Virus record (IMG/VR): IMGVR_UViG_2645727905_000010
Span: 1-14,072 of that record
Source: a virus
Taxonomy: Duplodnaviria; Heunggongvirae; Uroviricota; Caudoviricetes
DNA: 14,072 nucleotides
Strand: one strand, 5' to 3'
Shown here: one piece after another, positions 1-14,072 of the stretch
How positions within the stretch are numbered: position 1 is the stretch's first letter
Layout: every line of letters begins with the position of its first letter
The notes under the pieces: model-generated
What the model saw: only the letters and a program-made list of their open reading frames with translations
Database searches by the model: none
What the model was told of the DNA's origin: nothing
Position numbers and translations under genes: made by a program

Positions 1-30
1 ACACCCACTCTATTTAAATACCGTCTTTTT

Positions 31-80
31 GTCACTGTGTGTCACTGGTTGTCACTCTCCGTCACGGTATGTCACCACAA
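31..80. repeat. Five direct copies of GTCAC at exactly 10-bp spacing (starts 31, 41, 51, 61, 71), immediately 3-prime of the last minus-strand ORF
   Basis: Seen directly: tGTCACtgtg tGTCACtggt tGTCACtctc cGTCACggta tGTCACcaca. Helical phasing would put all copies on one DNA face. Confidence 0.8.
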
Positions 81-81
81 G

Positions 82-375
82 TTAACGTCGTAACCGCTCC
101 GGCTTCTTCCAGTGGTAAGTAATTTTTTCTTTCTCCTGGTACATCTCCACGCGGCGACGATATGACAACAACTCCAGAACTCTGGTGCGTATATTGCGTA
201 TATCCACGCCGTTAAGCTCGATACCGTCACGGCGCATCACCTCAGCCACCACACGCGCGTAATTTTCGGCTATCACGCTGTCCGGCTGCGTGGCCTCCTG
301 TTTGCCTGCTTCCTGGCTGATTCCGGTAACGCGACGGATTATTTTTAGTAGTTCGGTTTCGCTCATTCTCGTCAT
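82..375 (-). CDS. Hypothetical 97-aa protein, translationally coupled to the large terminase (ATGA overlap at 372-375)
   Basis: ORF with ATG at 375 overlapping the terL stop at 372-374. Basic C-terminus. No family recognised by eye. Confidence 0.55.
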   Translation of the reverse strand: MTRMSETELLKIIRRVTGISQEAGKQEATQPDSVIAENYARVVAEVMRRDGIELNGVDIRNIRTRVLELLSYRRRVEMYQEKEKITYHWKKPERLRR

Positions 376-2033
376 ACCCCATCAAACGCCGCAAGCCGCT
401 CTTTGTGGCTGTCGCTTATATCAAATGCAAATTTCTCATGTTCTGCCTGGAATGTGCCAAACGCCATCAGAGCCGCAACGCTCGGGTCTATCTTGTTGGA
501 TGATTTTTTCTTGTTCGGCTTGATATTGGCGTTCGCGTCACTCTGCATCACAACATTACTCATTGACCAGGCCAGCACCGGATCGCCACGATGCACAATC
601 ACCTTCCGGTTAACAAAAACTTCGAACGATTTCGCCGCCGGACTGAAACGAAGGTATGTTTGCGGGAACGGCTCCACCTCAAATCCTGCCCCCTGTAGCT
701 GCGTCCTCAGGTGCGTGGCGTTCCATGTATCGAAGCCCACCAGCCTGATATTGAAATTCTCTGCATCCGCCATGATGTCATCACGGATACGGTCATAATC
801 AATGCAGTCACCCGGTGTTGTGCGTATCCAGCCCGCCTTTACCCACTGGCGATAGATGGCGCGGTTTTTATTGGCGGGGTTCTGTAGCTGAAATTCAGGC
901 AGATAGTGACGGGAAACCAGCATAATCTTTTTACCGACCGGAAAGGCATAGCACACGCTGGAAATATCGCTGGTTGATGATAAGTCCAGCCCCGCGTAGC
1001 ACTCCTGCCCGTATAAATCCGCCTCCGCGAACGTTCCGGCGCACTCCGCCCATGCACCGTTACCCATCCACGGCGTAGCCCCCTGACACCAGATATTGAA
1101 TCGCTTGGTGAGCATTTCCACCCACTGCGACGGAATACCCCGCGCTTTCTGGATGGTTGAGGCCAGTTTTTCACGATCGACGGAAACATCGATATTGGGA
1201 TTCGCCTTTATCCACATCGCCGGATCGTCAACCTCGCTTTCATCATCCAGCTCGTAAATCAGCACGAACATGGATTCGTTCACCTCTTCACCATCCAGTA
1301 TCTGGCAGCAATAGTCATAGTGTTGTTTACAGGCTGAAACAACGTTGCTCCCCGATGTGGTGATGGCAAATAACAGCCCCTCCGGACGCGCCCCCATTCC
1401 CAGTTCAAGCGCGGAATAAACCCCGTTGTCAGGGTGCAGGTGATATTCATCCACAATGGCAAGACTCGGGTTTGTACCTTCAATGGTTGCCGCTTTTGCT
1501 GCCAGTGGCTTTAACAGGCTGTTGGTTTTCGGGTGTATCACCTTGTGTGCCTGAATATTTACCCGCTTTCGTAACGGTCGGGATAAAAGGCACATCTGAC
1601 GCGCATCATCAAACACGATCCGCGCCTGATCACGACTCACGGCGGCGGTGTAAATATCCTGCTGCCCGTTTTCCATAACCAGAAACCAGTTAGCCAGGAT
1701 AGCGGCGACCGTGGATTTGGCATTTTTTCGCGGCACTTCAATGAATGCGCTGGTGTATTTGCGCCGTCCGGTGGCCTTAACCTTAAAGCCCAGGATGCAC
1801 GCAAAGGCGAACTGCTGCCACGGCTCCAGCTCAATGGGGCTACCGCGCATTGCGCCTTTTACGTGCGGACACACCCTGGAAAAGGCAATAAACCGCTCCA
1901 CGACCTCCGGATCGAACGTGTAAAGGGGGTTTTCAAGGTCAGAAAAATACCGTTTAACGGCCTGTTTCAGTCGTTTACAGGCCGTAATTTTGCCGTTTTT
2001 TACGCCTTCTGCGTACTCATGCCAGGCGGTCAA
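372..2033 (-). CDS. terL: Terminase large subunit
   Basis: 553-aa translation has terminase-large character: N-terminal ATPase region and a C-terminal acidic nuclease region (IVDEYH, FDTWN). The first codon at 2033 is TTG, preceded by GAGGA 5 nt upstream. The first in-frame ATG is 61 codons in and would remove conserved N-terminal sequence. Overlaps terS 3-prime end by 17 nt. Confidence 0.92.
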   Translation of the reverse strand: MTAWHEYAEGVKNGKITACKRLKQAVKRYFSDLENPLYTFDPEVVERFIAFSRVCPHVKGAMRGSPIELEPWQQFAFACILGFKVKATGRRKYTSAFIEVPRKNAKSTVAAILANWFLVMENGQQDIYTAAVSRDQARIVFDDARQMCLLSRPLRKRVNIQAHKVIHPKTNSLLKPLAAKAATIEGTNPSLAIVDEYHLHPDNGVYSALELGMGARPEGLLFAITTSGSNVVSACKQHYDYCCQILDGEEVNESMFVLIYELDDESEVDDPAMWIKANPNIDVSVDREKLASTIQKARGIPSQWVEMLTKRFNIWCQGATPWMGNGAWAECAGTFAEADLYGQECYAGLDLSSTSDISSVCYAFPVGKKIMLVSRHYLPEFQLQNPANKNRAIYRQWVKAGWIRTTPGDCIDYDRIRDDIMADAENFNIRLVGFDTWNATHLRTQLQGAGFEVEPFPQTYLRFSPAAKSFEVFVNRKVIVHRGDPVLAWSMSNVVMQSDANANIKPNKKKSSNKIDPSVAALMAFGTFQAEHEKFAFDISDSHKERLAAFDGV

Positions 2034-2373
2034 GCTCGTCCTCTTCCTCTGTTTCCGGTGGATTTCTGCGGCGACTTACCGGGTCAAAACCCAGCAAAGA
2101 AGCCATTTTGATCATTATTCTTTCAGCGTCAGCCTTTGCGCTCAGGGCGGGGTTTCTGCTCTCGCTGCCCTGACTGTTAACAATGCTGAACCCGCGCGTG
2201 GCAAGGTCTTCGACGGCTTTGCGGTATATGGAGTAGTTAACGCAATACAGCTCCAGATTGCTCCAGTCGGCGGGGGTAAGGTCTTCCCGTCCGGAAAGCT
2301 GGCGCGATTTTTCCTTCCACTGCCTGACCGCGATTTCATCCAGGTAAGCGGGGGCTTTTGGTGGTCTTGCCAT
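2017..2373 (-). CDS. terS: Terminase small subunit (P27-like), about 118 aa
   Basis: Translation from MARPPKAPAYLDEIAVRQW resembles P27-family small terminases in size and sequence style. ATG at 2371-2373. The longer ORF to 2514 adds 47 residues with no recognisable similarity, so the start is uncertain. Confidence 0.72.
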   Translation of the reverse strand: MARPPKAPAYLDEIAVRQWKEKSRQLSGREDLTPADWSNLELYCVNYSIYRKAVEDLATRGFSIVNSQGSESRNPALSAKADAERIMIKMASLLGFDPVSRRRNPPETEEEDELDRLA

Positions 2374-2661
2374 GTTCTTTTTTCGCCCAATTATTTTCAA
2401 AAAAATTCCCGTGCACAAAAATTTGAGGAGGCGGTCGGTGTCCGGCAGGGACGGTTTCGTCCTGAAAACCACCCCCACCCCCTCTGACGGCCTCACCAGC
2501 GATTGCGAAAACATTCCATGACCTCGCGGTCACGGTCGGTTAATCGCTTCGCTGTGGTGCGTTCTGTGCGCCCTGTCCTGTTGGCTTTGTGCCCTGTCTC
2601 CTGTGTCTTCCATAAGTCACGCTGCCTTATCAGTCCACGTATCAGCCTGGTTTGCTCCTGT
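2374..2661. other. Candidate cos / packaging-initiation region between the HNH endonuclease and terS
   Basis: 288-bp gap with no convincing ORF. In HK97-like cos phages, as I recall, cos lies between the HNH gene and terS. Contains an imperfect inverted repeat (cagggacg gttt cgtcctg), GC-rich tracts and direct repeats gtgcgccctgtcctg / gtgccctgtctcctg. Confidence 0.3.
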
Positions 2662-3102
2662 TCAGTCATCATCGCCATACATCCAGTCGTTACGGTGTGC
2701 TGCCCGTTCTTCCTGCTCGCGATACATGCCCGCCTTACGGTTCGCTTTCGTGGCTGGATCTTCCCGTGTCGTCTTACGGTTGTGGCACGTCTGGCACAAT
2801 GCCTGGTGGTTCCACTCAGGCCAGAAGAGAACATCACCGCCGCCATTGATGGGGATGATGTGATCCACCACAAGAGCTGGCGTATAAATCCCCTTAGCCA
2901 GACAACGCACGCATAACGGGTTTTTGCTCAGGTACAGGGCGCGGTATTTGTCCCACTGTCGGGAATACCCGCGCGCGCGGCGGTGTCCCCGTCTGGCATC
3001 CTCTGCACGCCATACAGCCCGTCTGTGCTCTTCACACTTGCCGGACTTCACGCGCTTATTACAGCCCGGCTCAGTGCATCGCCTTAATGGTTGCCACGGC
3101 AT
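2662..3102 (-). CDS. HNH endonuclease (packaging-associated)
   Basis: 146-aa translation with N-terminal Cys pairs (CTEPGC, C..C) and the HNH motif region DHIIPINGGGD ... NHQALCQTCHNRKT. ATG at 3100-3102 overlaps the stop of the upstream connector gene by 1 nt. Confidence 0.9.
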   Translation of the reverse strand: MPWQPLRRCTEPGCNKRVKSGKCEEHRRAVWRAEDARRGHRRARGYSRQWDKYRALYLSKNPLCVRCLAKGIYTPALVVDHIIPINGGGDVLFWPEWNHQALCQTCHNRKTTREDPATKANRKAGMYREQEERAAHRNDWMYGDDD

Positions 3103-3404
3103 CAGTACACCCCCACATCACGATAAACCGACCAGAGCGCAGAAATAGCCATAGGCAGTTCAGACTGCTCCACTGGTGAAACTGCTTCCCTGTTCTCGTA
3201 CAGGAAAGCGATGTACATCAGGCAACCAACACGCATTGCCGGGGTAAATTCCAGCCCGTCTTCAAAACGTTTCCCGATATGCTTCTGGCAGGCTTCCAGC
3301 GCCGCATCGGTATACATTTTCAGAAGTTCGCCTTCACCGGATAAATCATCATCAAGTCGAAGATGTGCCCTGACTTCATCAGGTGTAATTCTGGCTTCAC
3401 TCAT
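3102..3404 (-). CDS. Head-tail connector / adaptor protein (gp6-like)
   Basis: Translation from MSEARITPDEVRAHLRLDDD...EACQKHIGKRFE matches the characteristic N-terminus of gp6-like head-tail connector proteins. ATG at 3404 with GGGAG upstream. Overlaps the portal 3-prime end by 8 nt. Confidence 0.7.
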   Translation of the reverse strand: MSEARITPDEVRAHLRLDDDLSGEGELLKMYTDAALEACQKHIGKRFEDGLEFTPAMRVGCLMYIAFLYENREAVSPVEQSELPMAISALWSVYRDVGVY

Positions 3405-4611
3405 CTTTTCTCCCTTTAATTTCCACAGTCTGTTTCCATGCCTGGCTGAACTCATCACCACCTTCACGCGGCGGCATACCCTCGCGTTCGCGAGCTTCGT
3501 TCTGATTCATGATCCCGCTCTTAATCCCTTTCTCATACGTGGCATAACGTTCGGTGGGTGTGGCGCGCAGTAAATCGGCTGAATCAAACTCAACCAGATA
3601 ACGGGTACCAGGTACGGGAGAAGTCACCAGCAAAGCGGCCTTGATTTGCTGTTCGAAGTTCGCCAGCCACGGGCGCATTGTCATGGTCAGAAATGCGCGG
3701 CTCGCCTCACTGAAATTGCTGTAGGTGCTGTTGCTGTATTCCTGAAGAAAAATCGGCGACACGTTGAACATCCTGGCGATGTCTTCAATGGAGAAGCGAC
3801 GGGAGGCCAGCCATTCCGCATCCTGGTTACTCATCCCCAGCTGCCTGTAATCCATGCCCCCTTCAAGGATTGGCGTTTTTCCGGCATTTTTCGCCCCCTT
3901 GTAGCGTTCCAGTGCGTCTAATGCCTGTTTACCTTTCACGCCGTCCAGCCATTCACCTGACGTGATAATCCCTGCCGCCATCATGCCATCTTTCATAATG
4001 CTGGCTCCGTGACGCTGTTGAGCAAGGCCAAGCCCCAGCGCCTCACGGCAAATCGTGACGGGGGAACGCCCCAGAAAGCCATTATCCGAGGCATAGCGGA
4101 GATGCAGAACTTCTTCCTGTAAATACGTGCGCACCGTTCCTGTACAGGGTTCGGTGATGGTATAGCGGTATTTGTGTGTGCCTGTGCGTTCCGGTACAAC
4201 ACACCCCGGCGCATAAGGATGAAGTGATTTTGGCTGCCCGTCCCGCCCCCACTCAATAACCGCATAGGCGTTACCGTTCAGCAGGCAGTGACGCATCATT
4301 GTGCGTTTAAACTGGTAAGGTGTCAGGCACGAATTAGGCTGCTCATTCAGCAGAATATCTACCGGGTGACTGTCCAGCCATTCCCGCGCCTCTCTGCCCT
4401 TGTCATTACGTACCAGATACAGGTAACACGGCATCGTGGCCACCGCCTCAGCGATGACAGAAACCGCGTTCATCACAGCAGGCAATGATTCAGCCGTCCC
4501 GGCAGAAACATATTCTCCGGATCCGGTATTTGGTACACCAGACAACGCCAGAAAATCATCAATGGACAGGTTACGCAGATCGCTTTTTTTACGACTAAAA
4601 GGCCACCACAT
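3397..4611 (-). CDS. Portal protein (HK97 family)
   Basis: About 400-aa translation with portal-like features and an acidic C-terminus. Start chosen at ATG 4611 (MWWPF...), directly after the protease stop. The ORF could extend to 4701. Confidence 0.88.
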   Translation of the reverse strand: MWWPFSRKKSDLRNLSIDDFLALSGVPNTGSGEYVSAGTAESLPAVMNAVSVIAEAVATMPCYLYLVRNDKGREAREWLDSHPVDILLNEQPNSCLTPYQFKRTMMRHCLLNGNAYAVIEWGRDGQPKSLHPYAPGCVVPERTGTHKYRYTITEPCTGTVRTYLQEEVLHLRYASDNGFLGRSPVTICREALGLGLAQQRHGASIMKDGMMAAGIITSGEWLDGVKGKQALDALERYKGAKNAGKTPILEGGMDYRQLGMSNQDAEWLASRRFSIEDIARMFNVSPIFLQEYSNSTYSNFSEASRAFLTMTMRPWLANFEQQIKAALLVTSPVPGTRYLVEFDSADLLRATPTERYATYEKGIKSGIMNQNEAREREGMPPREGGDEFSQAWKQTVEIKGRKDE

Positions 4612-4612
4612 A

Positions 4613-5173
4613 TCACAACCCCGCCAGTTCAGCCCAGCGATGACGATTATTTCCTGCCGGGCGTAATTCAGGGTACTGTGCAAACAACGAACGGTGGGCA
4701 ATCTCCACGCCGGATTCGGGATAAGCAGGCATCGATGTTATCGTGATTTCACGGAGTTCTGCGGCGGTTACAGTACGCAGATACGGTTTTTGCGCGATAT
4801 TCCACTCCTCGCATAATGCGCGAAAGCCAAAGCTCATTCCTGTAATATCGCCACGTTCCACCAGCGTAAGCACATCTTTTCCAAGCTGGGTATTTGGCGG
4901 TGTCAGTTCAAAACGTAGCCCGGTGTTATCCTCAGTCAGTACCAGTGAGCCGGATTTGGTACGCCCCAGCAGTCGGGTATAGTCATGCTCATACAGACAG
5001 CGCACATCATTACCCGTCGCCAGATAGTCAGCAAAAGCCCCCGGCGTGAACTGTTCGCGAAACTCGTCCCAGATAATTTCTGAAAGGCTGTTCCAGCGAA
5101 CGGCATAACCCACCAGTTTTTTATCGCTGGCGGTCAGTTCAGATGTACGGATTTCAAAATCGGTGTTTTTCAT
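4613..5173 (-). CDS. Prohead maturation protease (HK97 family)
   Basis: Translation from MKNTDFEIR contains the HK97-protease-like core (LYEHD...LGR...L.LTED..GLRFE...G.DVLTLVERGDITGMSFGF). ATG at 5173 with GGAG upstream. Confidence 0.88.
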   Translation of the reverse strand: MKNTDFEIRTSELTASDKKLVGYAVRWNSLSEIIWDEFREQFTPGAFADYLATGNDVRCLYEHDYTRLLGRTKSGSLVLTEDNTGLRFELTPPNTQLGKDVLTLVERGDITGMSFGFRALCEEWNIAQKPYLRTVTAAELREITITSMPAYPESGVEIAHRSLFAQYPELRPAGNNRHRWAELAGL

Positions 5174-5191
5174 CGGTGTACTCCATAAAGC

Positions 5192-5214
5192 TGAAAAAGG
5201 AGGCCGAAGCCCCC
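5192..5214 (-). terminator. Putative intrinsic terminator/attenuator between capsid and protease genes (minus strand)
   Basis: Minus-strand RNA would read GGGGGC-UUCG-GCCUCC (6-bp stem including one G-U pair, UUCG tetraloop) followed by UUUUUCAGCUUUAU. Sits 8 nt downstream of the capsid stop. Confidence 0.5.
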
Positions 5215-5222
5215 TTTGCTCA

Positions 5223-6368
5223 TTACTTGCCAGCCTGAATTTCCAGAATCTTGATGGCGTTCGAATCCACCACACCACCGCCCAGATATTTCTGGGTATA
5301 GATGTTAATGAATCCAGGCTCGCTGAAATCCGGACGGGTACGCGTACCGGTTTTATGGTCAACGATGAAATAACCGCGCTTAAAGTCACCGACTGCAATC
5401 ACACCGTCCGGCATAAATTCCAGATATTCAACCGGAAGCCCCAGCAGAGAATCAGGATCACCAGCCTGTAAACGATCGCGCCAGATGTAATCACCAGTGG
5501 CATTTTTCAGTTTTTGTGCGGAGGCGGCTGTATTTGAGTTCATCACCCATACAGCTTTTTTGCGGTACTTATTGCGCAGCGTAAATTTCAGGTCAATCAG
5601 CATATCGGCGCTGAGACTGCCAGTCACTTTTTTCGTCTGGAGCGTACCGAAAGGACGGGTTTTGTCATTATCCGTAGTGCGCGGGAAAGTCAGGAAACCT
5701 TTGGCTTTTTTCTCGCCATCACCGGAAACCAGATCCGTTTCTTCGGTATCAACGAAAGTGTCGCCAATTTCAGAAGATAACCAGCCCATAATATCGACTT
5801 CGGAAAAATCGATAATTTCCTGAGTGGTTTTCGGGTAAGCGTAGATCGGATACAGGCGGATACTGACTTCATTCAGTTTTGGGGTTGCCGTCTGGTTACG
5901 TGCCGCACCTTCTTCGCCGTGTCCCACGACCGCGCCCCCGGCAGAAACCAGTTGCTTAAATTCATTACTGTGAATGGTTTTAACAGTACAGATTTTACGC
6001 ATCACCGACTCATCAGAAAGCTGACGCATAATTTCTCTGTTCAGTTCCGGGATAACCGTATAACCACCATCAGCCGGAACACTGCCGGACAGGTTGCGGG
6101 TTTCCCCGGTCAGAATGTAAGAGCGTAGCTCATTTTTGGTGATTTTATCTTCGACGGGAACACCAGGCTGGTTACGTTCTTCATCAGCCACAGACTCGAG
6201 GCGGGAAATTTCTGTGTCGAGGGAATCGGCTTTTGCACGCAGTTCATCAAACTGTTTGCCTTCGTCATCGTTCAGGCTGCGGTTTTCACTGTCGGCTTTT
6301 TCCAGCAGGGATCGCATCTGGTTTTTCAGGACGGTTTTTTGCTGGCGGAGTTCGATTAATTTCTTCAT
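5223..6368 (-). CDS. Major capsid protein (HK97 fold) with N-terminal scaffold-like coiled-coil domain
   Basis: 381-aa translation with charged, heptad-like N-terminal region of about 100 aa and a C-terminal region typical of HK97-family capsid proteins. ATG at 6368. Confidence 0.9.
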   Translation of the reverse strand: MKKLIELRQQKTVLKNQMRSLLEKADSENRSLNDDEGKQFDELRAKADSLDTEISRLESVADEERNQPGVPVEDKITKNELRSYILTGETRNLSGSVPADGGYTVIPELNREIMRQLSDESVMRKICTVKTIHSNEFKQLVSAGGAVVGHGEEGAARNQTATPKLNEVSIRLYPIYAYPKTTQEIIDFSEVDIMGWLSSEIGDTFVDTEETDLVSGDGEKKAKGFLTFPRTTDNDKTRPFGTLQTKKVTGSLSADMLIDLKFTLRNKYRKKAVWVMNSNTAASAQKLKNATGDYIWRDRLQAGDPDSLLGLPVEYLEFMPDGVIAVGDFKRGYFIVDHKTGTRTRPDFSEPGFINIYTQKYLGGGVVDSNAIKILEIQAGK

Positions 6369-6438
6369 GAAGGTTTTCTCGCATTGGTTAAGATTCAGGA
6401 CGTGAAACCAACACGGGGGGAGCGCCGCCCGACACTCT

Positions 6439-6513
6439 CGGCATCTCGCAGATCAACCCGGCATCGCGCAGGGGGTCAGGCGGCATTGTGGCGGCTCACG
6501 TCTGAGTGCCACA
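6439..6513. promoter_or_regulatory. Candidate regulatory sites upstream of the capsid operon: direct repeats CGGCATC(N)CGCAG at 6439 and 6459, partial third at 6481, plus dyad TGTGGC-N15-GCCACA (6487-6513)
   Basis: Seen directly in sequence. Located 70-145 bp upstream of the capsid ATG (6368) on the transcribed side. Confidence 0.3.
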
Positions 6514-6562
6514 CGCCAACATATACATAAAAATCAGTATGTAAACATCAACCAGAATCACC

Positions 6563-6590
6563 GAACAACCTGGAACAACCACGAACAAAT
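6563..6590. repeat. Three 10-bp-phased copies of GAACAAC(C) (starts 6563, 6573, 6583); reverse complement GTTGTTC matches the repeat unit of the int-alpA array
   Basis: ccGAACAACC tgGAACAACC acGAACAAat read directly. Lies between the replication-operon terminator and the capsid gene. Confidence 0.6.
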
Positions 6591-6611
6591 AATTTACAAA
6601 ACCTGAAAAAA

Positions 6612-6632
6612 GGCCCGGAAAAAATCCGGGCC
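6612..6632 (-). terminator. Strong intrinsic terminator ending the replication/ssb/FinO operon (bidirectional hairpin)
   Basis: GGCCCGG-aaaaaat-CCGGGCC perfect 7-bp stem flanked by A-run on plus (T-run for minus-strand RNA) and T-rich tract on the other side. Follows the stop of ORF 6642..6890 within 10 nt. Confidence 0.75.
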
Positions 6633-6641
6633 TTTATCGCT

Positions 6642-6890
6642 TTATTGTTTCACTGGCTCCCGCATTCTGCGTCTTATTTTCCACAAATATTCGATCATCG
6701 CTTCCACCTGCTCACGGTTGGTTGCGAAAATTTCCCCGGTCAGTGAGCTACGCAGAAAATCATGATGATCCACAAAAAATAACGCATCGGAAGAAAGCAA
6801 CCGACGATATTTTTTTGCTGTCGTGGTTTCCAGATCATCAAAACCATGAAGCTTTTTATGTTGCTGAACTTCTTCAAATGTCACTGGCAT
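6642..6890 (-). CDS. Hypothetical 82-aa protein
   Basis: ORF with ATG at 6890 overlapping the FinO-like gene stop by 10 nt (operon context). No family recognised. Confidence 0.5.
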   Translation of the reverse strand: MPVTFEEVQQHKKLHGFDDLETTTAKKYRRLLSSDALFFVDHHDFLRSSLTGEIFATNREQVEAMIEYLWKIRRRMREPVKQ

Positions 6891-7411
6891 GTATCCCCCT
6901 TTGCTGCCCGGCGCTGGCGCTTGTGCTTCTCATTCAGCACCATCAGCCGTGTTTCTGCCTCCTGCTGTTCCTGTGGTGTCACTTCCCCACATGGCTGGCC
7001 TTTCAGATCGTAACGTGCGCCACCAGCTATCAGGGCGCGGTAATAGCGCGGAGACTGCGCATAGGATGCCAGCGTCGCACGTAATACCCCCGGCCCGAAT
7101 GCCAGCCCCCTGACGGCGATATCCTGCATCAGGTCGTCGAATATCCCCACCTTAAGCGGCTTCGGTGCTTTATGGCTGAATAAGTCAGGCCACATCTCAG
7201 TGAGGCGGTTAACGCGTCGGCGGTTTTTGCGCTGCCTTTTGGTCATATGCTGCCACGGTGTCGCCCCTGTGGGCTTCTGCTGTGCGTTCTGATTGCCGGG
7301 TATCACTTTATGCGCCGATGTGGTTTTATCCTGCTCTTGCGCCGCCTGCGTCGTTTTCTGCGGCGTGCCGTAAATGCCTTTCGGCTTCCGGTTAATGGTC
7401 AGCGTTGTCAT
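6881..7411 (-). CDS. ProQ/FinO-domain RNA-binding protein
   Basis: Core region WPDLFSHKAPKPLKVGIFDDLMQDIAVRGLAFGPGVLRATLASYAQSPRYYRALIAGGARYDLKGQPCGEVTPQEQQEAE resembles the ProQ/FinO fold signature (CF..PLKIGI.DL...S...LR.AL..Y..S.RY......G..R.DL.G...G.V). Basic Lys/Arg tail. Confidence 0.8.
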   Translation of the reverse strand: MTTLTINRKPKGIYGTPQKTTQAAQEQDKTTSAHKVIPGNQNAQQKPTGATPWQHMTKRQRKNRRRVNRLTEMWPDLFSHKAPKPLKVGIFDDLMQDIAVRGLAFGPGVLRATLASYAQSPRYYRALIAGGARYDLKGQPCGEVTPQEQQEAETRLMVLNEKHKRQRRAAKGDTCQ

Positions 7412-7447
7412 GCCTTCCCCTGTAATTACTCTGTTCGCTGTTGTGAA

Positions 7448-7873
7448 TTAAAACGGTATGTTATCCCCGTACGGGTCATCGTGCTGGCTTGTCTGTTGTT
7501 TTGCCCTGTTCAGTGCGTCAGTGGCCTGGCCCTGTTGACCTTTTTTGCCGCCCGGTCGCGCCGTTCGCGCACTGATTACGCTGTCTGCAATAACCTGCCA
7601 GCCCTGCCGCGTTTCCCCGTTCTGGCCTGTCCACTGGCTCACCTGCATGTTACCCGCCACGCTCACCAGTTCGCCTTTGTGGTGTTTTGCCAGTGCGTCG
7701 GCCTGTCTGCCAAACGCCAGGACAGATAACCACATCGTCGCCGTTCCGTCATCTGCCTGGCTGCACGGCAGGGGAACCGCCATACTCGCCATCGCCATTT
7801 GTGTCCCTTTGCTGGTGGTCTTTAACTGCGGGTCAGCCACCAGCCGCCCGTAAGCCGCTATCTGTGCTGTCAT
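7448..7873 (-). CDS. ssb: Single-stranded DNA-binding protein
   Basis: 141-aa translation with OB-fold-like core aligning by eye to E. coli SSB (IAAYGRLVADPQL / WLSVLAFGRQADALAKH / QGWQVIADSV), Gly/Gln-rich linker and C-terminal acidic tip ...DDPYGDNIPF (SSB tip motif D-I-P-F). Confidence 0.85.
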   Translation of the reverse strand: MTAQIAAYGRLVADPQLKTTSKGTQMAMASMAVPLPCSQADDGTATMWLSVLAFGRQADALAKHHKGELVSVAGNMQVSQWTGQNGETRQGWQVIADSVISARTARPGGKKGQQGQATDALNRAKQQTSQHDDPYGDNIPF

Positions 7874-7936
7874 GCTGTCTGTTCTCCGGTTTTAACGTTG
7901 ATTGTTACGCTTGTTTACACCCTTACGGTGAAATTC

Positions 7937-8060
7937 TGCGGGTTATAATCGCACTTTTGCGGGTTATAACTGCCGTTTTGCGGGTTACGTGCGGGTTATT
8001 GATTTCCTTTTTATTCATACAGTTAATGCACTTACACACAGGATAACCCGCATAACCCGC
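7937..8060. repeat. Putative origin of replication: four direct iterons TGCGGGTTA(T/C) at 7937, 7958, 7979, 7990, an AT-rich spacer, then two inverted copies ATAACCCGC at 8043 and 8052
   Basis: Seen directly. Located immediately 3-prime of the replication gene (stop at 8084), the usual ori position in PICI/P4-type elements. Confidence 0.75.
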
Positions 8061-8083
8061 AACTTTTTACATCACACAGGGGG

Positions 8084-10204
8084 TTAATCTTCTGCCTCAG
8101 GCTGGAACATCAGCACGTAAAAAACATGCTGCTTCCCCCCAATTTTGCTGAGCGCCTTTTTCTTGTAACGGCGGTCGTTCCCCTTTTCCAGCATCCCCGC
8201 CGCATCAAGCGCTCTTGCAAAATGCGACGGGTTAAATCCCTGTGCGATCTCACCTTCAAACACATGCGGGAACGTGTAAAAACGGAACTCGTCATCTTCG
8301 TTTCTGATACTCCCCTTTCTGTATCCGGCAAGCTCTTTAATCGGTAAATCACGCTCGTCGGTGTTGGGCCACGGAAGGTATCTGCTGAATCCGAACGACG
8401 CTAAAAAAGCCTCTGCCTGTTCAACCATCTGTTTAAACTCCCTGTTACCCGTGCCGAATTCCTTCACCCAGGCATAAAAATTATGCTGTATGGCATCGCG
8501 GCATTCCTGCTCATCCCAGCCAGTAACATGACCGGAAAGCACAAGCGCGGCCTCCAGTATGGCAAAACGCTCACCCACGCGGTGGACCTGCTCGCCGTAG
8601 CTCTCCGGTATCAGGTTGCGCCACCGTTCACGGCATGCCCTTACCGTGTCCTTTGCTTCCTGCTGGTGGTTTGCCAGCCATTTAACCCATTCACGACCCG
8701 CCGCCCCGTGATTTTCTGTCCAGGCATCCTTTAACGCGTCTGCGTGTGCCTTTCCGGTGCTGTATTCGTGAAATTGTGTGGCTTTTTCCATTGGCACGTT
8801 AAGCAGGCGGACAAGCTGCCCCGCCTTGACTTTTATCCCTTCCGTTTTGAGGAATGTTTCAACGTCCATTTCTCCGGTACTGATTGCCACCGTGCGCCAG
8901 TGTTTGATCTCCCTGTTGCCGCCGTCCTTTGCCCCCTGTAATTTCCCGGAACCGTTAAACAGCGTATAGGCTGACGTGGACACCTCCCGCGCGTTTCCGG
9001 CCTGACCTATTTCATCCAGGGGTAACAGCCCGTCATTATGTGCTTCGGCCTCGTTGGCGATACCTAACGCCGTGCCGTACCAGGTCAGCCGTTGTGCGTC
9101 CGGCTCTCCCCATAAACTGGATGCGATGTTCTGTGTGGTGGTTTTCCCTGCCGATGACTGTTCGAAAAGATGTACCCCGAAGCCGTCAGCCCCCACCAGC
9201 CCGATTAATGGTGCGGATAACGATACCGCCACACCCAGCATCATGGACGGATTACCACCAGCCAGCCGCGCCACGGTATCGCGCCAACCCTCCGCCGTTC
9301 CTGCCACGGAATAGCCATTAACAGCAGCCGTTTTTCCGGTAAACAGGACTGGCTTTTCGCAATCACCAATGACCGAACCGTCCGGCATGATGTACGCGCC
9401 AAAATGCCAGCCCGTTGTTGTGCTTAACTGCCATTCCTCATGGCTTCCGCTTAACTGCATCCAGTCAGCCAGGATAGCCCTGTATTTGCCGTTAGTTGTT
9501 ACGTTCAGTCCGTGGTCTTTCAGCAGCCGCCAGCCGTCACGGTCGCCAATGCCACCGCACGGAACCGCCATTGTTATGACTTCATGGTTTGCTAATTTTT
9601 TCCAGCGCATCACGCGGTAATGCTCTTTACCGATTGTCCCCGTTCCCAGTAGTTCAAGCGGGGAACATAACCACGTCTCAGGCCGGATAATTTCGCCTGA
9701 CTGCTTATCCACTTTGGGCGTTACCCAGAAAACACCATCGGCGCGGCTTTCAACGCGTGGCTTTAATTCATCATCACCCTGGCTTTCTGTGATTTTTTTC
9801 TTTAAGGGCAACACCAGACTTTCCCCGCGCTCGTATTCGTCTTTCAGCCGGGCAAGCTGTGGTGTCCAGTCCTCCAGTAAATCGCCGTTCTCGTCACAAA
9901 AACAGGCTTCTTTAACACCAGCCACTGCCAGCAGGGTTTCAATCTGTAGCGCCAGTTTGTCATCCAGTTTTCCGGCACGTCTGACGATGGCGCGTGACCG
10001 ACCCTCATCCACAATACGCAGGTTTTCCAGATTACCCAGGTCACGCCGTCCGAGATAAACAGGTGGTATTTTGTCGCCGCGCTTTCTGGCTTCTCCGCCC
10101 TGCATGTAATGCTCTGCGTGGCTGTATGCGTCATCCCCCGCAAAAATCACTGCATCCTCGCCTTTATCTTTCGGTAACAGTTTTACGTTCGGTGCCAGTT
10201 TCAT
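8084..10204 (-). CDS. Replication initiator: primase/helicase-like protein with P-loop NTPase domain
   Basis: 706-aa ORF. Central P-loop-like motif FEQSSAGKTTTQ and size/architecture typical of satellite and genomic-island primase-helicase (pri-rep) proteins. ATG at 10204 overlaps the upstream gene stop (ATGA). Confidence 0.8.
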   Translation of the reverse strand: MKLAPNVKLLPKDKGEDAVIFAGDDAYSHAEHYMQGGEARKRGDKIPPVYLGRRDLGNLENLRIVDEGRSRAIVRRAGKLDDKLALQIETLLAVAGVKEACFCDENGDLLEDWTPQLARLKDEYERGESLVLPLKKKITESQGDDELKPRVESRADGVFWVTPKVDKQSGEIIRPETWLCSPLELLGTGTIGKEHYRVMRWKKLANHEVITMAVPCGGIGDRDGWRLLKDHGLNVTTNGKYRAILADWMQLSGSHEEWQLSTTTGWHFGAYIMPDGSVIGDCEKPVLFTGKTAAVNGYSVAGTAEGWRDTVARLAGGNPSMMLGVAVSLSAPLIGLVGADGFGVHLFEQSSAGKTTTQNIASSLWGEPDAQRLTWYGTALGIANEAEAHNDGLLPLDEIGQAGNAREVSTSAYTLFNGSGKLQGAKDGGNREIKHWRTVAISTGEMDVETFLKTEGIKVKAGQLVRLLNVPMEKATQFHEYSTGKAHADALKDAWTENHGAAGREWVKWLANHQQEAKDTVRACRERWRNLIPESYGEQVHRVGERFAILEAALVLSGHVTGWDEQECRDAIQHNFYAWVKEFGTGNREFKQMVEQAEAFLASFGFSRYLPWPNTDERDLPIKELAGYRKGSIRNEDDEFRFYTFPHVFEGEIAQGFNPSHFARALDAAGMLEKGNDRRYKKKALSKIGGKQHVFYVLMFQPEAED

Positions 10205-10515
10205 TTTGCCTTTCCCCGTTCACGAATAATTTCACGTACTGCCTTAATGCGTTCCATTCCTGTAACGCGCATGATTCTGTCAATGTCGCTTAAGTTCGCT
10301 GGTGGTGCTTTGCTTACCAGGGTGAACTCCCTTTCAAAGCGCATATGCGACGACACGCAGGGATGCGCATAACCTTCGCGGATATAGGTCACGCGAAAAT
10401 CATCGACGGTTTTAATCGTTATCGTGCTGCCGTATTTATCCCGGAAAATATCGCCGGGGCGGATTTCAGGCCGAGCGGGGCCGCTGGCAGTAAAGCCAGA
10501 ATTTTTCTTTTTCAT
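10201..10515 (-). CDS. Hypothetical 104-aa protein
   Basis: ORF with ATG at 10515 and GGAG upstream. Stop overlaps the replication gene start, consistent with translational coupling. No family recognised. Confidence 0.55.
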   Translation of the reverse strand: MKKKNSGFTASGPARPEIRPGDIFRDKYGSTITIKTVDDFRVTYIREGYAHPCVSSHMRFEREFTLVSKAPPANLSDIDRIMRVTGMERIKAVREIIRERGKAK

Positions 10516-10520
10516 GTTTT

Positions 10521-10739
10521 TTACTCCAGAGGCAGCTTTTTAGCGGCGAGCTCAATATCAGATGTCAGAGAAACCTGTGTATTTGCCAGGTCTAACAACA
10601 AAGAAATAAGAATTTCTTCTCTGCTATCGGATTTATCGGTGCTAAGGCTGTTCATCCACATATTGACGACTTCCCTGATTTTTTTCGCAGAGTGCAGGGC
10701 TTCAAATGCCAGGTCTTCAATATCATGTTTATTTCGCAT
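10521..10739 (-). CDS. Hypothetical 72-aa protein, predicted helical
   Basis: Start chosen at ATG 10739 (MRNKHDIEDL...) with G-rich SD-like tract upstream. The longer form to 10805 would overlap the upstream gene by 77 nt. Confidence 0.45.
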   Translation of the reverse strand: MRNKHDIEDLAFEALHSAKKIREVVNMWMNSLSTDKSDSREEILISLLLDLANTQVSLTSDIELAAKKLPLE

Positions 10740-10941
10740 AATCGCCCCCGCGTAGCTGGTCTGCACTAACACCCGATTTAGTGAGCATTTCAGAAAATCC
10801 CGCAAGAGTGCTGATAAATTCGTTTTCCATTAAACGGCACTGACATTTAACCCGGCCTTTTTCCAGATACACCAGTACGCGCCCCGTATAATCTGACGGC
10901 ACATTCAGCACTACAGGTAAGTGCGATTCATGATTATGCAT
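10729..10941 (-). CDS. Hypothetical 70-aa protein, paralog of the adjacent upstream gene
   Basis: Shares pattern TG..LV....KGRV.C...L with ORF 10934..11143. ATG at 10941 overlaps that ORF's stop by 8 nt. Confidence 0.55.
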   Translation of the reverse strand: MHNHESHLPVVLNVPSDYTGRVLVYLEKGRVKCQCRLMENEFISTLAGFSEMLTKSGVSADQLRGGDYAK

Positions 10942-11143
10942 GTCTCACCCCCTGAATATTCGCATTAATCATTCCGGCACGTTCTGCGAGTTCCTGTAAT
11001 GATTCCCTTGTTGCGACAATGGCTTCATCTGGCAGGTGGTAATTACACACCACGCGACCTTTATCCACATTGACCAGTAGCTGCCCGGTAAATTTCTCAC
11101 GAAACTGAACGCGGTTAAGGTCGGTAAGTGACAGGTTAATCAT
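10934..11143 (-). CDS. Hypothetical 69-aa protein, paralog of 10729..10941
   Basis: ATG at 11143 preceded by AGGGGGA. Conserved block FTGQLLVNVDKGRVVCNYHL aligns to YTGRVLVYLEKGRVKCQCRL of the neighbour. Confidence 0.55.
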   Translation of the reverse strand: MINLSLTDLNRVQFREKFTGQLLVNVDKGRVVCNYHLPDEAIVATRESLQELAERAGMINANIQGVRHA

Positions 11144-11339
11144 GGTGTTCCCCCTGGCGAATACGGGCAGCGAATACCATCACGCAGCCATCAGGAGATT
11201 GCTGACGCGCTTCCTGTTCGCTGGTGGCCTCAATGGTAATCACGCGCGGTTGTGCCGTGCTCAGGGCGATAAAACGCCAGATGTATTTATTCAGGTTGTA
11301 CGAGTCCCGCCCTTGCGGGTGTCTGGTATAATTTCTCAT
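11136..11339 (-). CDS. Hypothetical 67-aa protein, first gene of the leftward operon
   Basis: ATG at 11339 with GAGG 5 nt upstream. This is the plausible 3-prime part of a 370-aa track ORF whose remainder has non-protein-like composition and crosses the plus-strand genes. Confidence 0.45.
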   Translation of the reverse strand: MRNYTRHPQGRDSYNLNKYIWRFIALSTAQPRVITIEATSEQEARQQSPDGCVMVFAARIRQGEHHD

Positions 11340-11415
11340 AGCTGCCTCGATACGCTTTCTATCGTTGGTGGTTAGACGCCCTGCATGTGTGCCACCACTG
11401 CGGGGCGTTGTTGTT

Positions 11416-11511
11416 TGGTGCATCGCACCATTCGGTTTTAACCTATCAATAAGTGAATCGCACTTCAAGCCTTTCTCTGAAATTTTTTTTGTGTATACTG
11501 AATCGCACCAA
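11416..11511. promoter_or_regulatory. Divergent promoter/operator region: perfect palindrome TGGTGC-ATC-GCACCA (11416-11430) plus two further ATCGCAC-containing sites (11456-11467, 11500-11512), the last abutting a TATACT -10-like element (11494-11499)
   Basis: Seen directly. Lies between the divergently oriented 67-aa gene (start 11339) and the RHH gene (start 11530). Confidence 0.5.
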
Positions 11512-11529
11512 CTTAGAGAGGATTCAGTA

Positions 11530-11709
11530 ATGGCAACAGGTTCAACAAATAATAAGTCGCAACAGTTAAATGCCAGATTCCCGCATGATGTTGTTGCAGA
11601 CTTAGAAAAAAATTTAGATGAAGGTGAAAGCAAGGCGCAATTTATAGTTACTGCCGTTAAAGGTGAGATCAAACGCCGCCAGCGCCGCAAGGCCAAAGAG
11701 CAGGAGTAA
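11530..11709 (+). CDS. Ribbon-helix-helix (Arc/CopG-like) DNA-binding protein, 59 aa
   Basis: ATG at 11530 with AGAGGA 7 nt upstream. Translation has RHH-like layout: short N-terminal strand (LNARFPHDVV) followed by two helices (ADLEKNL...; ESKAQFIVTAVKGEIKRRQ) and a basic tail. Confidence 0.6.
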   Translation: MATGSTNNKSQQLNARFPHDVVADLEKNLDEGESKAQFIVTAVKGEIKRRQRRKAKEQE

Positions 11710-11766
11710 CCATCACCAGCGCCGTGGTGTAAGGTATTACGGCGCATTGCTATGCAGGACAACACA

Positions 11767-11940
11767 ATGACCGATAAAGAATTGACCAAAACATTATCAC
11801 CGACACGGAAAAGACGGCGCAGAAAGATAGAGCATGAATCAGAAAGATTCGCGCCATGTGCTTTTGCCCTTGAGCAATTCCTTAAAGAGTACAGGGAAAA
11901 GCGCTCATTGCAGGTATGGCAACGAACTGAACCAGACTGA
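11767..11940 (+). CDS. Hypothetical 57-aa protein with Arg/Lys-rich N-terminal segment
   Basis: ATG at 11767 with AGGA 7 nt upstream; ORF track alternative ATG at 11752 lacks an SD. Followed by an intrinsic terminator. Confidence 0.4.
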   Translation: MTDKELTKTLSPTRKRRRRKIEHESERFAPCAFALEQFLKEYREKRSLQVWQRTEPD

Positions 11941-12005
11941 TTGCATTGCCCACCAGCCGCAAATGTGGCATTGTTGGTGATGCTTTTGTTTTCCCTTGTT
12001 CCCAC

Positions 12006-12042
12006 TGGCGACCCTTTTGCGGTCGCCTTTGTTTTGCTTGTT
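12006..12042 (+). terminator. Intrinsic terminator for the plus-strand two-gene cassette
   Basis: tGGCGACC-cttttgc-GGTCGCCa stem-loop (7-8 bp stem) followed by TTTGTTTTGCTTGTT. Confidence 0.7.
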
Positions 12043-12300
12043 ATCCGGCAATAGTGGCGCTTCACCACACGGTTGATATAATTCCCCTGCACTGATCCAT
12101 TTTTTTCGCAGCAGGTTAATTGTTCAGAAAGACGGTTCCTTATCGGGGCCGCTTTTTTTATGCCTGAAAATACCCGATAACATGGCTTTTTAGTTTCACC
12201 AGGACGAACGAAGCCCCGCCCCTGTTCGGGCGTATATCCAGTATTCATGGTTAGATCTCTGTGTTAGTGGATGGGTGGCGGCGGTGCGCCGCCAGCCTGA

Positions 12301-12504
12301 TTAGTGAACTGCCTCGCGGCTGTCCTTCCATGCCAGAACTTCGGATAAAGACCAGCCAACGGAACGACCGCCGAGTTTACGCCGTGATGGGAATTGTCCA
12401 GTCTTCTCCAGGCGATACCGACATGAGCGGCTCAGGCCTGTAAGTTGCTGACATTCTTTTTCACGTATAAAGCGATCAGCGCTTAACACTATTGCCTCCG
12501 TCAT
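12301..12504 (-). CDS. alpA: AlpA-family transcriptional regulator (phage/island excision-activation regulator)
   Basis: 67-aa translation ...REKECQQLTGLSRSCRYRLEKTGQFPSRRKLGGRSVGWSLSEVLAWK matches the AlpA pattern (...TGLSRSTIYRL...G.FP....LG.RSVGW...E...W). Confidence 0.85.
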   Translation of the reverse strand: MTEAIVLSADRFIREKECQQLTGLSRSCRYRLEKTGQFPSRRKLGGRSVGWSLSEVLAWKDSREAVH

Positions 12505-12695
12505 TTCTCAAAGAGTCATTTGGTGTCTTATTGTGTCGTATTGTTCCCGCTAGAGTGATGAATGGCAAATATTGGTGACGGTCGTTTTACAGATATGGGG
12601 TAATTAGAATAAAAATACTTTTAATTCATTGTGATGTAGTAGCGTAAAATTTTGCTTTTACGCCTTTTTTACATATTTTTAAGAGTGATTCGCCA

Positions 12696-12711
12696 GTGTA
12701 TAAAAAAACAG
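12696..12711. promoter_or_regulatory. LexA-box-like element GTGTATAAAAAAACAG (one mismatch to CTGT-N8-ACAG) in the int-alpA intergenic region
   Basis: Seen directly. Differs at 2 positions from the E. coli umuDC-type box CTGTATATAAAAACAG as I recall it. The mismatch is in the normally conserved CTG. Confidence 0.3.
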
Positions 12712-12770
12712 TATACATATAAAAATCAAATGGTTATGAATGAGTTTGATTTTTAATCCGCTTGTCCCAT

Positions 12771-12820
12771 TTTGTTCCTTGTTGTTCGTCGTTGTGTCTC
12801 GTTGTTCCACGTTGTGTCCG
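12771..12820. repeat. Five 10-bp-phased repeats (T/C)GTTGT(T/G)(T/C)C between the integrase stop and alpA
   Basis: tttgttcctt gttgttcgtc gttgtgtctc gttgttccac gttgtgtccg read directly at starts 12771, 12781, 12791, 12801, 12811. Confidence 0.75.
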
Positions 12821-12842
12821 TTCTGAAAAATCACGAAAAAAA

Positions 12843-14072
12843 TTATATTTCTCTGGCTATTGGCAGTGTGGTTACGTTTTCGTGAGTACCCGCCAGTATC
12901 TCTAACCGCTCTGTCCACATGTCCAGCGCATTACGTTTCGCATCGAGATAACGGGAGTGGTTATAGACTCGCTGCATCCCTGGCATCTGGTGAGCGGTGA
13001 GTTGTTCGACAATATGCGGATCCACGCCTAAATCGTTCAGCATCGTGGTAAACGTGCGCCGTATATCGTGTAGTGACCAGTGCGGATGGTTTAATTTTTT
13101 GTGCGTGAATCTGCCGTATTGCGACACGCTGGCTTCCTGTTTCAGTTCCCCGAGTAATAGTCCTGTGTGTCGGTTCTGCTCCACCAGCCGTGTGACGAAC
13201 GGTAAAATGCTTTCCGGTATTGGCCTGAATATGGCGACCTTCGTTTTGCTGTGCTCCTTCGGTACTGTCCAGAGCATTTCCTTAAAATCCCACTCCCTGA
13301 TCTCCGACAGCCTCAGTTCTCCGGTTCGGCAACCAAACACAATCAGGAGGCGGATTAGTGCGCTGTAGTAGGGCGGGAATATTTTTTTATCCAGCGCCTG
13401 TAATAATTCGCCCAGTTCTTTGTTACTAAGCACGCGTTCGCTTATGCCTGGTTTTTTACCAACGTCCACCACGTTGAGATCATCCAGAGCGTTACTGACG
13501 ACATAGCGGCGTTTACGACAGAATTTAAGCGCCTGTTTGCACGCCTGCATCATGTGACCAGACGTTACGGGGGATTTTTTGCGTATCCGGTCAAAACAGG
13601 CCAGCCAGTGACGTAATTCGCATTTATCCAGTGGCATGTTACCGATGTGCTGTATGACGTGATTATTCAGGCGACTTTTCAGGCATACATAATCGACACG
13701 GTTTTCCTTTACGTGCGTTTCCAGCCAGTAACTGATCGCATCGCCAACCGTTACGGGTTTTAACGCTTCCTGCACAGTGTAGTTCAGTTCATGACGTGGG
13801 TTTTTCCCTTCTGCCAGCCATGCACGACACTTTGCGGCTTTTTCCCTGGCTGCTTTAAGGCTCAGATCGGGATAGTTTCCCAGCTTCAGGCGTTCCGGTG
13901 TGGTATCCCTTCCCGTTCCAGCCCTGTAGGTGAAGTACCAGGTCAATTTACCTGATGTTAAATATTTCACGCTCAGATTACCGCCATCGCTATAGAACGT
14001 ATTTTTCTCCGCTGGCTTACCATAAAGTTTTCTTAACAATGTATCGCTCAGTTTGTTAAGCGCTCTGCTCAC
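12843..14072 (-). CDS. int: Tyrosine integrase (P4/CP4-57-like), truncated by the window edge at its 5-prime end
   Basis: C-terminal catalytic region with HDIRRTF (H-x-x-R), LTAHQ and RVYNHSRY (Tyr nucleophile). N-terminal region ...YSDGGNLSVKYL...GKLTWYFTYR... typical of P4-family integrases. The ORF is open to the window end and the first translated codon is GTG, so the true start lies beyond 14072. Confidence 0.93.
   Translation of the reverse strand: MSRALNKLSDTLLRKLYGKPAEKNTFYSDGGNLSVKYLTSGKLTWYFTYRAGTGRDTTPERLKLGNYPDLSLKAAREKAAKCRAWLAEGKNPRHELNYTVQEALKPVTVGDAISYWLETHVKENRVDYVCLKSRLNNHVIQHIGNMPLDKCELRHWLACFDRIRKKSPVTSGHMMQACKQALKFCRKRRYVVSNALDDLNVVDVGKKPGISERVLSNKELGELLQALDKKIFPPYYSALIRLLIVFGCRTGELRLSEIREWDFKEMLWTVPKEHSKTKVAIFRPIPESILPFVTRLVEQNRHTGLLLGELKQEASVSQYGRFTHKKLNHPHWSLHDIRRTFTTMLNDLGVDPHIVEQLTAHQMPGMQRVYNHSRYLDAKRNALDMWTERLEILAGTHENVTTLPIAREI

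Follow-up and report, generated by a model that had tools for sequence, protein, structure and literature searches.

Four overlapping small genes at the head of an early operon

We analysed a 14,072-nucleotide stretch of viral DNA (IMG/VR record IMGVR_UViG_2645727905_000010, positions 1 to 14,072; hereafter the window), which by its gene set is an Escherichia coli capsid-forming phage-inducible chromosomal island (cf-PICI; PICI, phage-inducible chromosomal island), as for EcCIEDL933. The subject of this analysis is a cluster of four small open reading frames (ORFs) on the minus strand of the window (10521-11339), encoding 67, 69, 70 and 72 amino acids (aa) according to the ORF list and our re-translation. 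They are genuine early genes, and the element that carries them is a phage satellite of E. coli. Our leading interpretation, for which the case is about evenly balanced, is that the cluster forms the P4-like front end of the cf-PICI early operon, a coupled, AlpA-driven unit that would supply a division inhibitor and protein-binding accessory factors. The genes of the cluster, in the order of transcription, are:

11136-11339, minus strand: ORF1, Icd-like or P4-Kil-like first cistron (67 aa, isoelectric point (pI) 9.1)
10934-11143, minus strand: ORF2 ('parA'), PHROG-340 domain protein (69 aa)
10729-10941, minus strand: ORF3 ('parB'), second, diverged PHROG-340 domain protein (70 aa)
10521-10739, minus strand: ORF4, acidic protein, last cassette before the DUF4222 gene (72 aa, pI 5.1)

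All four ORFs start with ATG, preceded 6-9 nt 5' by a G-rich Shine-Dalgarno sequence that lies within the end of the preceding gene. ORF1 and ORF2 overlap by 8 nt (ATGATTAA), ORF2 and ORF3 likewise by 8 nt (ATGCATAA), and ORF3 and ORF4 by 11 nt (ATGCGAAATAA). The mechanical frame of ORF4 extends to 10805 with a TTG start; the ATG with a Shine-Dalgarno sequence is at 10739. ORF4 is followed after a 5-nt gap by the DUF4222 gene, which in turn overlaps the primase gene by 4 nt, and no terminator-like site was found on the minus strand within 10521-11339. Judged from this layout, the chain is probably translationally coupled. An earlier note on this DNA had described four ORFs of about 67-72 aa, chained by overlaps of 8-11 nt at the head of a leftward operon between alpA (12301-12504) and the replication gene (8084-10204). 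The coordinates and overlaps were exact on re-translation, the ORFs were placed at the front of the satellite's early operon, and the position given for them was correct, with the DUF4222 gene additionally located between the cluster and the primase gene and a YlcI/YnfO-family gene between alpA and the cluster.

The ratio of nonsynonymous to synonymous substitution (dN/dS) was below 1 in all four genes in pairwise comparisons with related islands, which form a small and non-independent sample: 0.24-0.47 for ORF1, 0.11-0.6 for ORF2, 0.09-0.2 for ORF3 and 0.3-0.5 for ORF4, the last based on few substitutions. The four exact proteins carry annotation in public genomes and recur across many assemblies. 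Among the ORFs on the opposite strand or in other frames of the cluster, two had no family match and one had a weak match (phrog_4106, E = 8e-4). The existence of fused (121 and 154 aa), truncated and chimeric forms, together with the weak family support for ORF4, could be taken to mean that some of the four are chance ORFs or the decaying remnants of a longer fused gene. We consider this extremely improbable: every ORF has its ATG and Shine-Dalgarno sequence and a dN/dS below 1, tens to hundreds of genomes conserve the genes in separate form, and three of the four ORFs have strong matches to family hidden Markov models.

ORF1 is a member of the Icd/Kil family

ORF1 matched the NCBIfam model for Icd-like proteins (NF033153) at 70.4 bits, where the cutoff is 25 (E = 9.6e-20), and a RefSeq protein identical to ORF1 is named Icd-like. 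Its PHROG matches were phrog_6196 (5.7e-42) and phrog_1743 (1.1e-22). The latter family is also matched (7.5e-21) by the eta/kil ORF of phage P4, through its last 65 residues (73-137). Direct BLASTP of ORF1 against the P4 ORF was not significant, and the link between the two is at the profile level only. According to PMC10111431, P4 kil is the terminal part of eta, and PICI genes in the same zone are treated as relatives. ORF1 is assigned to this known Icd/Kil-type family, and a cell-division inhibitor is expected from the membership. The statement in the earlier note that none of the four proteins resembles a nameable family was wrong for ORF1, which is named by NF033153 and shares phrog_1743 with P4 Kil.

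PHROG labels phrog_6196 and phrog_1743 'transcriptional repressor'. In the P4 record, the ORF that matches phrog_1743 is annotated 'cI gene product (AA 1-137)' (8168-8584). Immunity of P4 is due to an RNA and not to this ORF product, and the Rfam C4 match falls inside the ORF; for these reasons the label is probably a misleading legacy of the old P4 annotation.

ORF2 and ORF3 are diverged copies of one small domain

ORF2 and ORF3 aligned by BLASTP at 29% identity over 52 aa (E = 5e-9), share the motif TG..LV....KGRV.C...L and both matched PHROG 340 (E = 5.1e-23 for ORF2 and 3.7e-20 for ORF3). The paralogy that the earlier note had read from the motif is thus borne out. PHROG 340 is a function-unassigned family, to which relatives in Klebsiella and Salmonella prophages score 8.7e-32 and 2.7e-25. 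A profile search among 1.84 billion proteins gave 92 representatives at E <= 0.001, and a word-indexed search gave 434 clusters, all named 'hypothetical', from Escherichia, Salmonella, Klebsiella, Citrobacter, Enterobacter and relatives. The conserved core of the family reads ..(D/N)FTGR(V/I)(L/V)(V/L)x(V/L)ENG(R/K)V...L.D.E.V.TL..F.ELA..AG.. and the AlphaFold2 model of ORF2 (predicted local distance difference test score, pLDDT, 75.8) consists of a beta-hairpin (residues 21-37) and a helix (46-55); an earlier model built from a shallow alignment was poor (pLDDT 61.5). The two proteins are modelled as two diverged copies of one beta-hairpin/helix domain of about 55 residues.

Natural proteins of 121 aa are head-to-tail fusions of the ORF2-type (A) and ORF3-type (B) domains, and proteins of 66-67 aa are A/B chimeras joined at the FTGR motif. 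The pair therefore acts like an array of tandem domains in which recombination changes the number of copies. Because single-chain A+B fusions occur naturally, a dimer or pseudo-dimer is expected for the ORF2/ORF3 domain.

Searches beyond PHROG added little. Nothing significant was found for ORFs 2-4 in Pfam, NCBIfam or PADLOC, and sequence and profile searches of the PDB gave no genuine match. The RNF4 match in the PDB (5e-4) was spurious and traced to a tandem construct in which a 20-residue hairpin occurs twice. In some databases members of the ORF2 cluster carry the label SCO4226-like or DUF4242 (PF14026), which we rejected because the score of 13.8 bits is below the gathering threshold of 28.5; of 70 members of the family, only 2 matched PF14026 at E <= 0.5. 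PF27490 is recorded on two fused homologues. A tblastn search of 50,697 phage records with ORF2 found no match, and the ORF3 alignment, scanned against one genome per species, gave no relative.

PHROG-340 genes of Klebsiella and Salmonella lambdoid prophages are located in the early-left accessory region, between the CI-like repressor gene and int, where they are chained with overlaps to neighbours that include a phrog_1478 relative and phrog_27579 genes. These prophage members are 76-84 aa long and carry an additional strand region at the N-terminus and the motif 'AGW.V.P' at the C-terminus. In a Klebsiella prophage the PHROG-340 gene (5001-5255) overlaps a downstream 72-aa gene with a ParE-like toxin domain (5227-5445; PF24732, E = 1.6e-19). 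This overlap would suit an antitoxin-like PHROG-340 protein that is the partner of the next small gene, which in the window would pair ORF3 with ORF4 or ORF2 with ORF3. Such a role is very improbable, since the ParE-like gene is absent from the Salmonella relatives, many different families follow PHROG-340 genes, and ORF4 matched neither ParE-like nor other toxins and, in contrast to typical toxins, is acidic.

ORF4 has no long apolar run, and its PHROG matches were weak (phrog_2196, 1.4e-4 over 48 residues; phrog_5796, 1e-3; phrog_27579, 0.012). At two of the related loci (L013 and L014) the slot before DUF4222 holds a strong member of phrog_2196 (1.2e-42), with which ORF4 gave no BLASTP alignment. 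The exact ORF4 protein is present in at least 1000 contigs, and 76 complete E. coli genomes carry ORF4 at an identity of at least 95%. The view that no family can be named is also incomplete for ORFs 2 and 3, which belong to the catalogued but uncharacterised PHROG 340; ORF4 may fall, by its weak match, into the likewise uncharacterised PHROG 2196. Structure prediction and remote homology search, the checks that had been proposed for these proteins, yielded the PHROG 340 family and the hairpin-helix model, and no neighbour among solved structures. A proposed survey of conservation and variability in related islands found the frames in tens to hundreds of genomes, with cassettes that differ among islands.

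The small genes form an exchangeable cassette array independent of replicase type

We counted relatives by DNA similarity among 5426 complete E. coli genomes. In 1630 of these (about 30%) at least a portion of the 819-nt cluster had a match, and most of those listed match the ORF1 end only. ORF2-type relatives were present in 637 genomes and ORF3-type relatives in 239, of which 38 were full length. The whole four-gene array was found in 5. ORF2-type genes outnumber ORF3-type genes by far and are often found where no ORF3-type gene is present.

In E. coli islands the interval from the Icd-like gene to DUF4222 is filled by three or four small genes, in varying order and sometimes fused. The cassette families across islands are PHROG 340, 5146, 24341/2512, 1478 and 2196. 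The fusions include A+B at 121 aa (3826-4191 of locus L012) and alpha+beta at 154 aa (3545-4009 of L013), the latter matching the 154-position phrog_2512. Such fused and chimeric cassette genes, which also include proteins P0018, P0060 and P0063, indicate frequent recombination within the array. In the related islands nearly every joint between genes follows the pattern (A/T)TTCAGG(G/A)GG-N5-7-ATG-nn-TAA/TGA, in which the Shine-Dalgarno sequence lies in the preceding gene and is followed by overlapping start and stop codons. Conserved joints of this kind would both couple translation and supply short homologies for cassette exchange.

The block formed by the Icd-like gene, A, B and ORF4 and the first 35 or so codons of DUF4222 is found at three chromosomal sites and is joined to replicases of the DUF927, D5_N/Pox_D5 and RepA-type helicase types. 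Similarity to islands with other replicases breaks at about 10406-10411, inside DUF4222. The three replicase types and the breakpoint in DUF4222 place the small genes on the regulatory and accessory side of the island. DUF4222, or at least its C-terminal part, would by the same comparison belong to the replication module, and its co-variation with the replicase suggests that the C-terminal part works with that protein.

These results bear on whether ORFs 2-4 are accessory replication factors, of the origin-binding or loader type, for the DUF4222-primase module. They lie directly 5' of DUF4222 and the primase gene, in one transcription unit and one overlapping chain, and in strain ECOR61 (see below) all six linked genes, the primase gene among them, were required for the reported effect. 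We nevertheless regard a replication role as improbable, because the Icd-A-B-ORF4 block is joined to three unrelated replicases and the C-terminal part of DUF4222 alone co-varies with them. The cassettes also vary freely among islands with similar replicases, and the lambdoid PHROG-340 relatives lie in an early-left accessory region, away from replication genes. ORFs 2-4 are exchangeable accessory cassettes common to satellites and lambdoid early-left operons.

A long open frame and a divergent region lie upstream of ORF1

Upstream of ORF1 the window contains the following features:

11340-12263, minus strand: stop-free frame continuous with ORF1, an eta-like extension (308 codons, first ATG 12248)
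11412-11510: three operator-like copies of GTG(C/A)ATCGCAC, found by repeat search (spacing 35 and 45 nt)
11521-11709, plus strand: YlcI/YnfO-family small gene, divergent from the cluster and antisense within the long frame (NF041551, E = 1.7e-17; phrog_949, E = 4e-24)
11752-11940, plus strand: 62-aa phrog_21027 member, antisense to the long frame

The long frame begins directly after alpA (frame limit 12263; alpA ends at 12301). Equivalent open frames of 220-408 codons were found in 8 of 9 related loci; the remaining locus has 30 codons and an IS3 insertion. Substitutions in the long frame revealed neither a third-position excess nor codon periodicity, and no sign of amino-acid constraint. 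The pattern is suggestive of a frame that is kept open and is not conserved as a protein, and it is suggestive only because the compared loci share ancestry.

The YlcI/YnfO-family gene carries a matching annotation in relatives, and a 9-nt inverted repeat spans its start. Terminator-like hairpins on the plus strand (12007-12027 and 12133-12151) follow the two plus-strand genes. The GTG(C/A)ATCGCAC copies are located in the 180-nt space between ORF1 and the YlcI/YnfO-family gene, where a protein repressor, taking the place of the immunity RNA of P4, may use them as operators.

The cluster resides in a capsid-forming PICI

The genes of the integration and replication regions on either side of the cluster are:

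12843-14072, minus strand: integrase gene
12301-12504, minus strand: alpA, AlpA-family activator or excisionase-type regulator, upstream of the cluster (PF05930, E = 3.4e-18; phrog_2790)
10201-10515, minus strand: DUF4222 gene (PF13973, E = 3.4e-19)
8084-10204, minus strand: DUF927 primase/helicase-type replication protein, end of the coupled chain (PF06048, E = 5.7e-46; phrog_1139 DNA primase, E = 7e-175)

The minus-strand order is int, alpA, the cluster, DUF4222, DUF927 primase, single-stranded DNA-binding protein (SSB), ProQ/FinO and then the capsid and packaging genes. By Pfam and PHROG matches the packaging module is ordered major capsid, prohead protease, portal, head-tail connector, HNH, TerS and TerL. 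The cf-PICI preprint defines these elements by int, alpA and a replication gene with their own capsid, protease, portal, connector, HNH, TerS and TerL genes in about 15 kb, and it is this gene set on which we base the assignment of the window. A ProQ/FinO-family RNA-chaperone gene and the island's own SSB gene (6881-7411 and 7448-7873, minus strand) lie between the primase gene and the capsid module; in related islands a PerC-family regulator is found near this position.

E. coli chromosomal islands that are 98% identical to the window (98.2% for one) over 94% of its length carry matching annotations and are inserted in yifB, adjoining ilvL. One contig, from assembly GCA_017053945.1, matches the window at 99.75% identity across 5.6 kb. 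An island in NZ_AP043644.1 (1269497-1278315) has a copy of the cluster that is 99.9% identical to that of the window. The DUF4222 gene of this island lies directly beside a gpJ tail-tip gene of a phage, and portal and head-tail genes lie on the opposite side. The arrangement resembles a satellite lodged within the late region of a prophage, as described for helper-embedded PICIs. A tblastn search of the 50,697 phage records with ORF1 gave one match, LR881103.1, a 16.5-kb record submitted as an induced phage under the name 'Escherichia phage vB_KppS-Ant'. Its layout is that of a satellite: int and a regulator gene, an ORF of 324 aa with an Icd-like domain at its end, two small genes that overlap, a primase gene and a capsid gene. 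The record is probably a packaged cf-PICI and not a phage.

Proposed function of the early operon

We propose that a helper phage switches on the alpA promoter and that leftward transcription then enters the cluster, with a possible second, local promoter in the operator-like region at 11412-11510. In EcCICFT073, helper-induced AlpA is reported to activate PICI genes, and expression of the downstream genes depends on AlpA. Translation would begin with ORF1 itself or with the long frame whose 3' end is ORF1, and ribosomes would be passed from gene to gene through the ATGnnTAA overlaps down to DUF4222 and the primase gene. ORF1, a basic protein, would block host cell division. Its translation should also license expression of the downstream genes, by analogy with P1 icd and P4 kil/eta, and protect the transcript from premature termination, as proposed by analogy with P4 kil/eta. 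The ORF2/ORF3 domain would work in dimeric or pseudo-dimeric form by binding a protein of the host or of the helper phage, and would not be an enzyme. ORFs 2-4 are small and soluble, have no obvious catalytic residues and show a cassette-like distribution, and for these reasons binding to host or helper proteins is the most economical reading of their role.

A phage-related phenotype has been described for a comparable gene block. Silas et al. (bioRxiv 10.1101/2023.04.06.535777) reported that cell death of ECOR61 is triggered by the phage accessory gene orf24 (T7-group). Suppressors were transposon insertions in an Icd-like gene and in two overlapping small genes directly downstream (QOYT01000045.1: 9309-9675, 9131-9317 and 8940-9132), and six linked genes including the primase gene were required to reconstitute the effect of this 'superinfection exclusion' locus (bioRxiv 10.1101/2023.04.06.535777). 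On this precedent, ORF1 and the small proteins of the window could constitute a phage-triggered abortive-infection or superinfection-exclusion module, in which a protein of an incoming phage switches on the early operon or acts on the proteins it encodes, and the cell stops dividing or dies. The superinfection immunity of EcCIMP1, for which no known defence system was found, points in the same direction. We consider such a module unlikely as the explanation of the cluster. None of the four ORFs, nor the DUF4222 or YlcI-like protein, matched a PADLOC-DB v2 model at E <= 1, and the ECOR61 small genes (61 and 63 aa) are likened to those of the window by layout and not by sequence. The phenotype could also reflect satellite induction followed by runaway replication, which is toxic in EcCICFT073.

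Several points weigh against the proposal of a P4-like early operon with protein-binding cassettes. The ORF2 model had no structural neighbour in the PDB or BFVD, and a 'protein binder' is the default description of a small domain without obvious catalytic residues in a model of moderate confidence. The frequent occurrence of ORF2-type genes without ORF3-type genes makes an obligate A/B heterodimer unlikely. The openness of the long frame could partly reflect shared ancestry, given that it has no codon-position bias. Rfam searches found no C4/CI or isrK-type RNA in the window (at gathering score and at E <= 5) or in 8 related PICI loci, with P4 as the positive control (C4 74.9 bits, isrK 60.8 bits), which leaves the analogy with P4 incomplete. 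Finally, the transposon hits in ECOR61, whose locus is compared with the window by gene order, could be polar effects.

The P4-like operon proposal is consistent, by analogy, with the slot of P4 epsilon and with the ECOR61 suppressors, both of which fit a helper- or phage-directed role of the small genes. The suggestion in the earlier note that these genes are candidates for helper-manipulation or anti-phage functions is a reasonable hypothesis. A bolder extension, which we offer as speculation, is that the variable array following the Icd/Kil gene serves enterobacterial satellites as a hotspot dedicated to accessory genes. The cassettes, among them the PHROG-340 domain, whose predicted fold has no match among solved structures, would be sensors or effectors for particular proteins of helper or rival phages. 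Each cassette would either manipulate the helper or, in line with the ECOR61 phenotype, trigger growth arrest, and the CAGGGGG...ATGnnTAA junctions would be exchange sites between islands and lambdoid prophages.

The ORF1 family and the cassette families were already known or catalogued, and in this respect the result is a tidy annotation without surprise. Small early genes beside the Icd/Kil gene of P4 and P1 manipulate helper phage and host (Kil, epsilon, Ant), and the ECOR61 screen suggests that an equivalent gene block is needed for phage-protein-triggered cell death. The PHROG-340 domain is common to satellites and lambdoid prophages across the Enterobacteriaceae, and the cassettes downstream of ORF1 are uncharacterised. 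A named first gene followed by replicase-independent, exchangeable cassettes narrows the experiments worth doing.

Comparison with known systems

The left operon of P4 has the order vis - eta/kil - epsilon - orf151 - orf106 - alpha. As in P4, the window has an AlpA/Vis-family gene and then a long frame that ends in a Kil/Icd-type protein of about 65 codons (phrog_1743), followed by small genes with 8-nt start/stop overlaps and then the primase gene. The helper derepressor gene epsilon of P4 occupies the equivalent slot after kil with the same 8-nt overlap. This slot alone is shared: alignment of PHROG 340 with epsilon gave an hhalign probability of 0.05%, and the PHROGs differ (10016/3688 for epsilon against 340). 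The window also differs from P4 in that the CI/C4 and isrK-type RNAs of P4 were not found in it, a YlcI/YnfO-family gene lies antisense in its long frame, its small genes behind the Kil-type gene have no relationship to epsilon, orf151 or orf106, and DUF4222 is present where P4 has DUF5375.

Through the NF033153 family, ORF1 is also comparable to icd of the P1 immI operon (c4 - icd - ant), being an Icd-like, small first cistron that overlaps the next gene; in P1, icd overlaps ant. Unlike P1, the window has no C4 RNA and no antirepressor gene downstream.

The ECOR61 locus resembles the window in its Icd-like gene with an N-terminal extension, its overlapping small hypothetical genes, the first of which, by the coordinates, would share the 8-nt overlap with the Icd-like gene, and its primase gene.

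In the lambdoid early-left (PL-type) region, PHROG-340, phrog_1478-related and phrog_27579 genes are likewise chained, between the repressor gene and int. These are full prophages, in which the genes are not beside Icd-like or primase genes.

The window as a whole matches the general Gram-negative PICI layout of integration, Bro, replication and late zones, as given in PMC10111431. The small genes between the Icd/eta-type gene and DUF4222/primase are neither discussed nor tested in the passages retrieved from PMC10111431 and the cf-PICI papers. Like cf-PICIs such as EcCIEDL933, the window carries a complete cf-PICI packaging module.

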